Source of the DNA: Thermoplasmata archaeon
GTDB taxonomy: Archaea > Thermoplasmatota > Thermoplasmata > Lutacidiplasmatales > UBA184
Reading direction: 5' to 3'
Assembly: GCA_028864975.1 (NCBI GenBank)
Contig: JAGWLG010000018.1
Coordinates: 1 to 62,520 of the forward strand
DNA: 62,520 nt
Under the pieces are notes generated by a model. That model was not told the DNA's origin and searched no databases. It worked only from the letters and a program-made list of their open reading frames with translations. The position numbers were made by a program, and so were the translations under genes. Positions within the stretch are counted from its first letter, which is position 1; each line of letters begins with the position of its first letter. This document shows, piece after piece, positions 48,987-53,727 of the stretch.

Positions 48987-50042
48987 CTACGCGGCCGCAG
49001 CTCCCAGCAGGAGCCTGTCGTACCGCTGCCACAGGGGGGCCCTGACGGATTCCATCGGTTCCCTGACCACCTCGAGATTCCCCAGGTGGCGCGAAATCGT
49101 GGAGAGAACAGCACGGTGAGGTGACTGGGCCCCGGCCTGAAGGCCTGTTCCCAGACTCCCGATGAGCACTTGGCTTCCATCGCTGGCGACCAGGAACGGG
49201 AAGACCCCGCATCTACCCACAAGGACGGAGAAGAGGTCGGGCAAACCATCTTGGTCCCTTAGGGTGCCTCGGGTCATGATGAGGTGGGCAATCGAGCGGT
49301 TGTCGTACTTGGGGACTACTCCGGGGTGCAGCGACACTCTCCACTCCACGAGTCCATGTTCCAATAGTCGTCGTTGCGACCCGGGAAGGGTTGCCGGCCC
49401 CGCGAGATGGGAAGGGCGACCCCCGTTCATCTCCGGGAAAGGCCTTCGCAGGAGTTGAAGTGAGGCTGAAGCTCCAATCAGAGAAGCTCTGCGACCCCAA
49501 CGGGAAGGGCCGGGTCCTATCGGGAGAGGCCGGGGGTAGTGGACCGTGCCCCGGAGCCCAACGAAGTGCGCCCACGCCCCCTCGAAGTCATAATAGACGG
49601 GCACCCGTGGCTCCTTTGGGTCCAGTGAGAGGAACGCGAGAACGCCACCCCCCACGTGGGAGGAGAGTCTCGCCCTGAGTTGGTCGGCCCCCTCCTCCGA
49701 GGCATGGAATACTGTCCCGAGAACGAGCTGGGTCCCCGTGAGAACGACCACGGCCCCAGGCTCCGAGGAGATGAGCTGCGAGGTCTCCTGGATCCTGTCG
49801 GTGAAGGGTCTCGCAAGGACGAAGGAGACCCTGTTGAGACCAAGTGCCGAGGGAACCGGAAGATAGCGATCCTCGACTAGCCCAGATTCGTAGAGCCGTT
49901 TCTGAGCGAGCCGATAGGATGAGTCCGAGAGCCCCGAAGCGCGAACCCTCTGCCGTACGGTGCCCGGTGTGGAACCTAGAAGGCTCGCTGCGACACGAAT
50001 GGCGTTCTCAGAGAGTGTGAGGGTTCGAGCGTTCATTCTCAA
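48987..50042 (-). CDS. Lrp/AsnC-like regulator, paralog of 8629..9717
   Basis: SGLSDSSYRLAQKRLYESGLVEDRYLPVPSALG; shares VYYDFEGAW/VYFDFEGCW and SQRRLL/SQRHLL with the paralog. Confidence 0.6.
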   Translation of the reverse strand: MRMNARTLTLSENAIRVAASLLGSTPGTVRQRVRASGLSDSSYRLAQKRLYESGLVEDRYLPVPSALGLNRVSFVLARPFTDRIQETSQLISSEPGAVVVLTGTQLVLGTVFHASEEGADQLRARLSSHVGGGVLAFLSLDPKEPRVPVYYDFEGAWAHFVGLRGTVHYPRPLPIGPGPSRWGRRASLIGASASLQLLRRPFPEMNGGRPSHLAGPATLPGSQRRLLEHGLVEWRVSLHPGVVPKYDNRSIAHLIMTRGTLRDQDGLPDLFSVLVGRCGVFPFLVASDGSQVLIGSLGTGLQAGAQSPHRAVLSTISRHLGNLEVVREPMESVRAPLWQRYDRLLLGAAAA

Positions 50043-50070
50043 AGGTGCTACTCCTTAGCACGGCCGCCAG

Positions 50071-53000: not shown

Positions 53001-53727
53001 CGCCCAGGGTGGTCAAGCGCCCTACACCTACTCCTGGAACTTCGGGGACAACACCTCCACAGCCAACGGATCGTCCGTGTTCCACACCTACGCGGTCCAA
53101 GGGGTGTACGTCGCAGCTCTGTTCGTGAGCGATTCGGTGGGAGACCAGGCGAGCACGGGGGTCTTCATCACGGCCTACGGGAGCGGGTCGAGCGGGCAGA
53201 ACGGGCTCGCCGTGTCGGTCACCGCCTTCGCGCTTCACGGGCCTGCTCCCTTCACGGCGACCTTCAGCTCGGCAATCCACGGAGGTTCCGCCCCTTTCCA
53301 GCTTGTCTGGAACTTCGGCGACGGGAGCCCGGCAGTCTCGGCGAGCAAGGCGGGCCTGGTCAGCCATACGTACTCGAAGCCCGGAACCTACTTCCCGCAC
53401 CTGCAGGTCACGGACTCGGTGGGCTCGGTCGCGCAGTGGGCCACCACGCAGCAGGGAACTGGACACCCCGTTAGTGTAACCGGGACTTCGGCCCCCACGT
53501 CCTCTATCTGGACCCCCTGGCTCATCGCGGGCATCGTGGGGGCCGTGGTGGCGGTGGCCGCGCTGATGGTCGGTGTGCGCCGACGGCGGTTCTCGTCGTC
53601 CTCGGGAGCCACGGAGACGGGGAAGGCCTACGCTCAGTATCGTGTGCCCGAGGCAACAGGAGAGGGCACTGAGGAAGGAATGGGTTCCGACGTGGTCGAG
53701 AACGACCCCATGGCCGATGCCCTCTGA
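50071..53727 (+). CDS. Surface protein: Kelch propeller + about 8 PKD repeats + TM anchor
   Basis: MAYDASDGEIVLFGG..DTW repeats; eight W.FGDG/W.YGDG/FGDN motifs; TM + RRRR. Confidence 0.9.
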   Translation: MRDPETGGVLMVMSVDGPSMTPLRLRTTAKPRASAGTVRVSHLLVWAFVLLLAAVPAGLVALPSGAPSFPVRLHGPSGGVAPSGARGTTVPASLVAQSTVGWTNVSPAVSPPKLQHDALVDDGSDGYDLWVGSSGGVEYEWSFSGGFWSSRGTITAPVYLAAYDPTDGYVLDVGGPGPGNATWKFHGGVWTNLSISHSPPRAPELMAWDAADGYMVTLGFGQTTQTWGYVGGAWTNHTSGLQPTPRSGAAMAYDASDGEIVLFGGHSATNCPASTLVCGDTWTYKAGTWTNITSSLATAPSPRWGAGLAGNTSAAGGALLFGGHAFLPSPTWYNETYNDTWLFQGGVWTNVSVNLSPLPRYDSYGYPGSTFTYDSSIPAYLLFSGETMLNGYGHNWYTLNDTWEYRTGQIPLSAGASGNPTSGPVPLAVRFTGSASGGSPPYAYAWNFGDGSLGSHAINPNHTYNSTGSFTPTLTITDSASRTATAVATILVVPKLIVSATANPSSGSVPLSVVFNGSASGGTPPYIWTWWYGDGSTISHARNPSHAYNTTGAFPVQLQIMDSGAGNANQIVSAFLNITVVACSPCSLSASASAIPTQGSAPLSVAFNGSALGGSTPYRWNWSFGDGSLYSHARNPTHVYNASGTFVATLTVTDSVGATARGHVWINVTAILHATLAFNSPNQGYAPLTVSMTGNATGGKPSYAYAWAFGDGTSGVGVTVSHTYAQPAGCGSGGSCNDTVTLTVSDSSGATATATGVVTITPNSTASLHAGIRFNSPSSGYAPLTVTVTGNATGGTAPYTFAWTFGDGAATTGTTVSHTYHAPAGCGSGGSCSYNMTLTAQDSVGHSARAVAVVSIWPNGTKTFNATISLSPSSGTAPLPVSLDGNASGGQSPYTFVWAFGDGSTATGATVQHTYVQAGTFAVVLTAVDAKGGVAQATSSVQVSPPPPPNGTGYLEISIDVRPATGPAPLTVHFTGFAQGGQAPYTYSWNFGDNTSTANGSSVFHTYAVQGVYVAALFVSDSVGDQASTGVFITAYGSGSSGQNGLAVSVTAFALHGPAPFTATFSSAIHGGSAPFQLVWNFGDGSPAVSASKAGLVSHTYSKPGTYFPHLQVTDSVGSVAQWATTQQGTGHPVSVTGTSAPTSSIWTPWLIAGIVGAVVAVAALMVGVRRRRFSSSSGATETGKAYAQYRVPEATGEGTEEGMGSDVVENDPMADAL

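Follow-up and report, generated by a model that had tools for sequence, protein, structure and literature searches.

A tandem Lrp-like protein encoded divergently from a PKD surface protein in a Thermoplasmata archaeon, and its possible coupling to the partner's C-terminal tag

The gene pair and its products

The window analysed here is a 62,520-nucleotide stretch of DNA from a Thermoplasmata archaeon (assembly GCA_028864975.1, contig JAGWLG010000018.1), and corresponds to the entire 62.5-kb contig of a genome of 3.6 Mb (68% G + C, 89.6% complete). Its module at 48987..53727, referred to as copy 2, consists of the gene of a small protein (P0001, also P0003) and, divergent from it, the gene of a large surface protein (P0002). 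By taking into account the predicted folds, the distribution of the family to which P0001 belongs, and the sequence elements that accompany it, the probability that P0001 is a double Lrp-type factor, which binds a TGCTA box and is coupled through its second RAM-like domain to a short C-terminal tag of its neighbour, is estimated to be about 0.5.

The longest open reading frames (ORFs) of the module, 48987..50042 on the minus strand (351 residues) and 50071..53727 on the plus strand (1218 residues), were found exactly where the original prediction had placed them, in the divergent arrangement it described. The likely start of the P0001 gene is ATG 50036 (MNARTLTL), in agreement with a database cluster of 349 residues and with an 81%-identical homologue, and that of P0002 is ATG 50128 (MTPLRLRT), with a positively charged stretch and then a hydrophobic segment after it. 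The resulting gap of 91 bp bears out the figure of about 90 bp given earlier. In-frame ATG codons upstream of 50128 coincide with the AT-richest element of the gap, which, on the basis of its sequence, may be the TATA box of a leaderless surface-protein mRNA; similar ATAAGC/TTAAGC elements were seen by eye in orthologous gaps. Eight sequencing runs contain the sequence, all of them DNA contigs from two studies, with no RNA run among them. The homologues P0004 and P0005 are 81% and 74% identical to P0001, one homologue being annotated as 'hypothetical protein'. A search with P0001 of genome and metagenome contigs found no related loci.

In P0002, eight PKD stretches are recognized by Pfam (PKD_4, E 3.4e-91, 299.9 bits with a cut-off of 27; PKD, E 3e-63, also eight stretches). 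Thus, the multi-PKD part of the earlier description (a 1218-residue Kelch and multi-PKD protein) stands, whereas the Kelch match (PF24681, E 3e-9) reaches 36.9 bits against a Pfam cut-off of 50. With PKD matches above the cut-off, an N-terminal hydrophobic segment and a C-terminal transmembrane helix, P0002 has the features of a PKD surface protein, and it also carries 31 N-x-S/T sequons. No DNA-binding domain was detected in P0002 with Pfam, and the translation of P0001 contains no hydrophobic segment. A near-identical copy of P0002 (G000 C58:634-3825), with the C-terminus NDPMSDAL, takes up a 3.8-kb contig, at whose end it is truncated, and represents either a co-assembled strain variant or a recent duplicate.

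The small protein belongs to a family of seven paralogues in this genome. Searches of Pfam returned no family for P0001 at E<=0.01 and none for the other six paralogues at E<=0.001, those of NCBIfam returned none for all seven at E<=0.1, and the six PF01037 matches of the genome all lie outside the family. The AlphaFold2 model of P0001, based on 15 family sequences (predicted local distance difference test score, pLDDT, 83.6; predicted template modelling score, pTM, 0.86), contains one unit occurring twice, namely three helices and a wing followed by a beta-alpha-beta-beta-alpha-beta domain. The succession of a winged helix-turn-helix (wHTH) and a RAM domain, which characterizes Lrp/AsnC proteins, is therefore predicted twice within the chain. 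The best solved match is the sirohaem decarboxylase NirDL (4czc_A; Foldseek E 3.7e-8; VIA Z 12.5, root mean square deviation 5.2 A, 260 aligned residues, identity 12-13%), which is the best overall match because it is also double Lrp-like. The N-terminal half (residues 10-160) matches at least 10 structures of single Lrp/AsnC regulators with Z values of 6.6-8.2 over 136-150 residues, and the Foldseek E values of Lrp/AsnC structures against P0001 range from 1e-5 to 1e-3. Only two sensible matches were obtained with the family profile among the PDB sequences, Pyrococcus Lrp PH1519 (weak, E 0.0029 and 0.0042, positions 9-143) and MtbAldR (E 0.35).

More distant relatives are consistent with this assignment. 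Each of 16 weak class-level homologues (343-408 residues) matches the N-terminal wHTH profile of the family twice, and 15 of them have HTH_24, TrmB or MarR matches, most of them near both residues 10-70 and 190-260. The structural neighbours in the Atlas are Thermoplasmatota wHTH clusters of 350 residues, with families of the HTH_24, TrmB or MarR type (TM-score 0.72-0.75), and bacterial tandem Lrp/AsnC proteins (TM-score 0.62-0.66). Within the family, conservation is among the highest at the recognition-helix positions (S-T-Y...R of unit 1, P-R-S-Q-R-R of unit 2), and the extra conserved segments VPVYFDFEG, YPR and DHRYDRL are also present. The term 'Lrp-like' used in the original prediction therefore holds for the fold and probably for remote homology as well, with the qualification that P0001 is a single-chain double module of 349 residues, against the single module of about 150 residues of Lrp proteins, which assembles into dimers and octamers, and not a canonical member of the family. 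The features of the module, and those of a related pair in the same window (copy 1), are collected in table 1.

Table 1. Features of the copy 2 and copy 1 pairs in the window (nucleotide positions) and predicted domains of P0001 (residues).
Feature	Position	Strand	Basis or remark
Tandem Lrp/AsnC-like gene, 349 residues (P0001/P0003)	48987..50036	-	ORF and start used by database cluster
wHTH1 of P0001	residues ~10-62		AlphaFold2 model
RAM-like 1 of P0001	residues ~70-140		AlphaFold2 model
wHTH2 of P0001	residues ~188-246		AlphaFold2 model
RAM-like 2 of P0001, then C-terminal helix	residues ~249-337		AlphaFold2 model
Perfect palindrome GTGCTA-CTCCT-TAGCAC, candidate operator	50045..50061	.	9-25 nt upstream of ATG 50036
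AT-richest gap element GCTTATGG, candidate TATA box	50097..50104	+	~25 nt upstream of ATG 50128; sequence only
Surface protein gene (P0002)	50128..53727	+	ORF open from GTG 50071 (1218 residues from that GTG)
N-terminal hydrophobic signal/anchor segment HLLVWAFVLLLAAVPAGLVALPSGAPS	50194..50274	+	translation
Kelch-like propeller region	50770..51150	+	Pfam-matched residues 234-360; repeats reach residues ~100-410
Eight-PKD array (residues ~410-1130)	51298..53460	+	Pfam PKD_4/PKD; repeats aligned
Single C-terminal transmembrane helix	53506..53577	+	translation
Cytoplasmic tail, 49 residues	53578..53724	+	last eight residues NDPMADAL (53701-53724) form the end-tag
Copy 1 tandem Lrp-like gene	8701..9717	+	longest ORF from 8629; likely start GTG 8701
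Copy 1 TGCTA box TGCTAGACCTTGTAA	8663..8677	+	within longest ORF call, upstream of GTG 8701
Copy 1 partner, PKD surface protein of 436 residues ending in EEPDLLADVL	7292..8602	-	divergent

Distribution of the family and of its partners

An exhaustive search with the family profile yielded 460 cluster representatives at E<=0.001, of which 317 at E<=1e-30. Across 401 sampled genomes of the class, only those of the taxonomic family of the window gave strong full-length matches, and there the protein is present in 58 of 59 other sampled genomes, mostly as a single copy (the count takes in the unpublished genomes G098, G212 and G302). Greedy longest-ORF calls in DNA of 68% G + C gave wrong frames for some neighbours (L041, L046, L049), so the identity of neighbours was based on hidden Markov model, tblastn and motif searches.

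In this genome each of the seven family genes has a divergent neighbour that encodes a membrane or surface protein. The divergent partner is a PKD/Kelch protein in five cases (copy 2, copy 1, one on C38 and two on C82). In another it is P0160, a protein of 506 residues with a signal peptide, a T/S-rich ectodomain and a C-terminal transmembrane helix, and in the last a double-anchored protein of 132 residues, followed by a BNR-like membrane protein of 851 residues. Although PKD proteins are abundant (115 ORFs, 11.6% of the bases), a divergent PKD partner is found for only 1.0% of random 1050-bp segments, against five of the seven family genes (binomial P 1.9e-9), and an adjacent PKD ORF in any orientation for 3.7% of them, against all seven (binomial P 8.7e-11); these P values are rough because the segments were drawn without alignment to genes and the paralogues are related.

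A different picture of the partner emerged from other genomes. When each genome's best family match was considered (the core sample, 20 loci), a PKD ORF adjoined the family gene in two loci, and a P0160-like protein was the divergent neighbour in 18. The ancestral and near-universal pair is thus, as judged from gene neighbourhoods, a regulator with a non-PKD, P0160-like surface protein. Among 20 secondary paralogues from other genomes, five have a divergent PKD partner, three a PKD neighbour in another orientation, and four a P0160-like neighbour (two divergent, two convergent); with the probes used, neither type was detected beside the remaining eight, several of which adjoin other proteins with a signal peptide or transmembrane helix, as seen by eye. 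With the same kind of probes, no PKD protein or tail tag was found near the distant class-level homologues. As for P0160 itself (L002:12276-13796, corresponding to G000 C115:32275-33795), it is conserved across the archaeal family, and neither Pfam nor NCBIfam recognizes it; its model consists of nine very long antiparallel strands (pLDDT 66.5), and a fold search of the PDB with the ectodomain gave no match at E<=0.001.

The original prediction had argued for a functional link between adhesin and regulator from two independent occurrences of the pairing. The other occurrence, copy 1, does exist, its regulator being 31% identical to P0001 (E 3e-41). However, in a quick IQ-TREE tree the two copies fall into one PKD-associated paralogue clade (Shimodaira-Hasegawa-like approximate likelihood ratio test, SH-aLRT, 96), and therefore they do not count as independent, being duplicates of one ancestral pair. 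The type of partner tracks the regulator clade over the tree, with 11 changes compared with 24 after shuffling (none of 200 shuffles was as low). The closest genomic relative of the copy 2 regulator, 47.6% identical, comes from another genus (L058) and adjoins a co-directional Kelch and PKD protein, which shares 43% identity with P0002 over 1132 residues and aligns with it through the Kelch-like region; beside a third relative, a PKD protein with 46% identity over 573 residues is encoded convergently. In a genome of the same genus, no close orthologue of copy 2 is present, the best member being 38% identical. Conservation of the pairing in other genomes, whose absence would have counted against the original prediction, is thus documented by the core loci and, for the copy 2 pair, by another genus. 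The link itself is retained, since the pairing recurs within and between genomes and the genes share the TGCTA box described below, although the argument from independence is lost and the ancestral partner is not a PKD protein.

The TGCTA box, the tail tag and predicted docking

De novo expectation-maximization on 39 upstream regions, taken from other genomes only, gave (C/T)TGGAC-N4-TGCTA, a motif whose distance to the coding start is almost constant and which occurs both in core pairs and in PKD-paired paralogues. At many loci T(A/C)(G/T)CA is found five bases downstream of TGCTA, which yields sites resembling TGCTA-N5-TAGCA. The pentamer is rare in the genome (1.2e-4 per nucleotide per strand) and occurs at -27 to -35 of profile position 1 in five of the seven family genes (P 2.4e-9) and in 19 of 39 from other genomes; it thus provides, as a candidate operator, a shared motif of the kind whose absence would have counted against the original prediction. 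The palindrome has ACACCG/CGGTGT arms at the core locus on C115 and TGCTA/TAGCA arms in copy 2, L038 and L042. Inspection by eye makes an RNA hairpin an unlikely reading of the box, since the register of the palindrome shifts between loci and there is a clade in which box and start codon are directly adjacent.

A scan of the genome with the 22-bp matrix gave 37 matches of at least 14 bits, with the core copy at rank 1 and the C46 copy at rank 5. The match at rank 4 (20.3 bits) precedes by 88 nt a second P0160-like gene, located on C97, to which no family gene is adjacent. This position favours a DNA site that acts on the partner-type gene over a leader of the family mRNA, and makes the C97 gene a candidate trans target of the core regulator. 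The encoded surface protein (G000 C97:15118-16723) is 44% identical to P0160 and ends in QQDPLGHLY. In copy 2 the palindrome is about 40 nt upstream of the TATA-like element of the partner, a layout that would permit autoregulation and control of the partner from a single site. According to a review of archaeal Lrp proteins (PMC2995911), the FL11 site is a 13-bp palindrome, members of the group mostly autoregulate, and those that activate bind just upstream of the promoter.

The second feature that the partners have in common is the extreme C-terminus. The last seven residues of the core partners, D-P-L-x-x-L-W, are invariant in 19 of 19 aligned sequences, the remaining tail being poorly conserved. 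The PKD partners have the tags NDPMADAL (copy 2), PDLLADVL (copy 1), GDHLRDLF, DPLGDSL, DPLRDLL and DSLRDLF, small partners end with DPL(S/R/G)HM(V/L), and PKD neighbours encoded in the same direction as the family gene have DPLEDAL, DPMQDLV and DSLEDLY. The occurrence of the tag on partners in any gene orientation implies that the link between regulator and partner probably goes beyond a shared promoter. A neighbour ending with the motif was found in 28 of 40 loci from other genomes. In this genome, the relaxed form of the motif ends 8 of 19,094 ORFs of at least 100 residues (1.3 expected), namely five partners of family genes, the C97 gene at its orphan box, and two ORFs at contig ends, one of which is the near-identical copy of P0002. 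The strict form DPL..LW$, learnt from other genomes only, ends a single ORF, that of the core partner (0.02 expected). Of the 115 PKD ORFs, 112 lack a strict form of the tag pattern. Searches of open-access papers and bioRxiv found no paper for the four common variants of the core tag and, by keyword, none linking Lrp-type regulators to the tails of surface proteins.

Other observations concern the tails. A second, weaker aromatic motif is present about 25-35 residues before the end tag (window 53578-53700; L037-L052), with the form (N)xxLYPPG in core partners and AYAQYR, LDPY(S/H)xY or PYQRYH in PKD partners. In a further class of PKD surface proteins the cytoplasmic tails are zinc-ribbon-like, with CxxC...CxxC (G000 C104:52570-56793, C28:50555-54472, C93:35199-40937, C53:9874-14067, C121:80750-84787, C54:68354-71995 and C79:23022-45050). 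The ends of two further PKD ORFs (G000 C115:41912-43333 and C101:5913-7511) resemble the wing of a winged helix (...KVYRLTGRGEALA...), and their products may be fused, membrane-tethered regulators.

The relation between tag and regulator was modelled for the core pair, chosen because it has the best-defined tag and the deepest alignments, by combining the C115 regulator (alignment of 20 rows) with the last 48 residues of P0160 (19 rows). The interaction prediction score from aligned errors (ipSAE) was 0.84, 0.80 and 0.77 (median 0.80), and 0.00 for the best of three controls; this median mark is attained by 116 of 157 solved complexes and by 2 of 215 mismatched pairs, counts that hold only roughly here as our own alignments were used. 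The model runs agree in at least 63% of contacts, with a partner pLDDT of at least 48, and the confident contacts involve exactly the last eight residues of the tail, QDPLSNLW. On the regulator, the contact surface comprises residues 158-163, 256-262, 283-286, 301-306, 319-326 and 335, many of them family-invariant, which make up the FDFEG segment and the sheet of RAM-like domain 2. The model supports, without demonstrating it, binding of the core tag to the second RAM-like domain. Most of the modelled interface positions are identical in copy 2, to which we infer that docking can be extended. The parallel variation of interface and tag between clades is consistent with co-variation, although relatedness alone could produce it.

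Possible roles of the pair

In the mechanism that we favour, P0001 would be a cytoplasmic, single-chain 'double Lrp', whose two wHTH and RAM units form an intramolecular pseudo-dimer, and P0002 a receptor or adhesin similar to a type-I surface glycoprotein, with a tail ending in NDPMADAL-COOH. P0001 would be the dedicated transcription factor of the pair, binding TGCTA-N5-TAGCA at 50045-50061 and, from this box, regulating its own gene and controlling that of the surface protein; both DNA binding and the direction of regulation by P0001 are inferred. The extreme C-terminus of P0002 would bind to the second RAM-like domain of P0001, and the membrane protein could thereby titrate, tether or signal to its own regulator. 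In this scheme the pair would be comparable to a transmembrane transcription regulator split into two proteins, or to an anti-sigma/sigma pair. More tentatively, as something we judge to be somewhat short of an even chance, the pair may be a split transmembrane signalling unit of an undescribed kind, in which the eight-residue tag is a tethered ligand of the RAM effector domain. The abundance, clustering, cleavage or ligand binding of the surface protein would in that case determine how active its private regulator is or where it is located, and the family would have diversified through co-duplication of regulator, tag and box.

Several findings weigh against this proposal. No Pfam or NCBIfam HTH model recognizes the family, and the profile match to the Lrp regulator PH1519 is weak (E 0.003). 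With respect to the box, the full 22-bp matrix gives only 8.4 bits to copy 2 and 8.9 to copy 1, which score low because they keep only the TGCTA half; the box could be a promoter element of family genes instead of an operator, and a palindrome with arms of six bases is by itself not rare within a gap of 91 bp. As regards the tag, 12 of the 40 loci lack a neighbour that ends with the relaxed motif (in three of them the motif lies a few residues inside), and the partners of the C38/L055 subclade have no tail tag. The relaxed pattern was moreover written after seeing the sequences, so that its specificity, not its sensitivity, is informative, and only DPL..LW$ is a clean test. Docking was modelled for the core pair only, with our own alignments and low confidence in the fold of the partner, and copy 2 differs from that pair both in the tag and in the interface (H for R319, G for S305, F for L163 and I for A256). 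Longer homologues of the family, in which the two functions would be fused, were searched for and none was found, which is weak evidence.

The simplest alternative is that P0001 is an ordinary local transcription factor, whose partners carry a tail tag used for sorting, anchoring or turnover and merely co-inherited with the regulator. The fold, the wHTH domains of the homologues and the upstream box all fit such a role, as does the way in which archaeal Lrp proteins are described to act, on their own genes and just upstream of promoters. However, the tag is confined to partners of the family to the extent indicated by the strict and relaxed counts, it accompanies the family also where both genes point in the same direction, and in the model it docks on family-invariant residues while the controls give 0.00. 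We therefore regard this alternative as unlikely, though one to be taken seriously. The same docking, and a one-to-one pairing that holds regardless of orientation, would equally suit a protein that has lost DNA binding and become a cytoplasmic adaptor or chaperone for partner tails, acting in their assembly, anchoring or quality control. That HTH models fail on the family although they recognize its distant relatives also speaks for an adaptor, and the non-regulatory use of the Lrp fold has a precedent in 4czc/4czd, the fold being re-used as an enzyme in sirohaem decarboxylase, as reported in PMC4145669. This role is rather improbable, given that the recognition-helix positions are among the most conserved of the family and that a specific, conserved box lies at a fixed offset, also at the C97 partner-type gene where no family gene is present.

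A divergent, fused sirohaem decarboxylase of the NirDL/AhbAB type is suggested by the best structural match, and no other protein of the AsnC_trans_reg2 type was found in this 89.6%-complete genome (PF17805: no match). Nevertheless, we consider it very improbable by taking into account the low sequence identity with NirDL, the profile matches to regulators rather than to decarboxylases, the position of each of the seven paralogues beside a surface-protein gene, and the finding of no tetrapyrrole gene among the window neighbours scanned. Finally, in a genome so crowded with PKD genes, adjacency could in principle be due to chance, but the excess of divergent and of adjacent PKD ORFs over random segments, the conservation of the pairing across genera, and the box and tail tag that the partners have in common make this explanation scarcely credible.

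Comparison with known systems helps to place the proposed unit. The archaeal Lrp/AsnC proteins (PH1519/FL11, 2cyy, 1ri7 and 2e1c; P. furiosus LrpA, 1i1g; halophilic Lrp, 8q90) resemble each half of P0001 in the association of wHTH and RAM domains, and P0001 resembles them in having a semi-palindromic candidate site of 15-17 bp in its own control region. It differs in that two units are fused, HTH_AsnC and AsnC_trans_reg matches are absent and extra segments are conserved, and in that the ligand predicted for the RAM domain is a protein C-terminus rather than a free amino acid. Bacterial tandem Lrp/AsnC proteins of 300-333 residues (Actinomycetota and Chloroflexota) are likewise single-chain doubles, matching over about 290 residues, but have canonical Pfam domains; to our knowledge, no link to surface proteins has been described for them. 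NirDL and AhbA-AhbB (4czc, 4ch7, 4czd) share the double Lrp-like architecture, but are enzymes of haem and haem d1 synthesis, and the P0001 family lacks the AsnC_trans_reg2 signature.

Membrane proteins are known to sequester soluble regulators, as in the anti-sigma/sigma pair RsgI-SigI or in the binding of Mlc to the glucose transporter PtsG. In both cases, as proposed here, a membrane protein with an outward-facing domain holds a soluble transcription factor by means of a cytoplasmic segment, but the protein families are unrelated, and in the present model it is an eight-residue C-terminal tag that would dock on a RAM-type domain. The transmembrane transcription regulators (TTRs), as described by Demey et al. 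2023 (PMC10269533), bring together an extracytoplasmic sensor or surface domain, a single transmembrane helix and a DNA-binding module in one unit. The pair would have the same components, with the difference that sensor and DNA-binding protein are encoded by separate genes and would be joined through the short C-terminal tag; neither P0001 nor P0002 contains both a DNA-binding domain and a transmembrane helix in one polypeptide.

The remaining content of the window places the two pairs in a mobile context. A conjugation operon occupies positions 1-6929 and copy 1 directly adjoins it; within it, an ORF similar to T4SS_pilin/TrbC is found at 5746-6279 on the minus strand (E 2.8e-5). Genes typical of mobile elements or defence, including HFX_2341-like/DUF6293, a ResIII helicase, RVT_3 (RNase H-like), YAcAr SLOG, a Macro domain and DUF932, are located at 18231-20294, 30071-30625, 54555-55187, 56949-57782 and 59922-60782, and together suggest that the entire contig is mobile-element DNA. 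The conjugation operon and the lack of a close orthologue of copy 2 in the same genus raise the possibility that both copies are cargo of a conjugative element, in which case their surface proteins could serve mating contact. A giant Kelch and PKD protein of 2152 residues (10208-16666, minus strand) is convergent with the copy 1 regulator; it ends in DERPPEE, without the family tail tag, and is therefore probably not a partner of that regulator.

Few routes from the cell surface to transcription are recognized in archaea, and more than one-tenth of the genome of these uncultured Thermoplasmata is given over to PKD-type surface proteins. If the proposed coupling is true, a protein C-terminus would be a new class of ligand for the Lrp effector domain, and the pair would represent a simple, two-part design for transmembrane signalling. 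The combination of tag and box would then provide a sequence rule that predicts which surface proteins each regulator serves.

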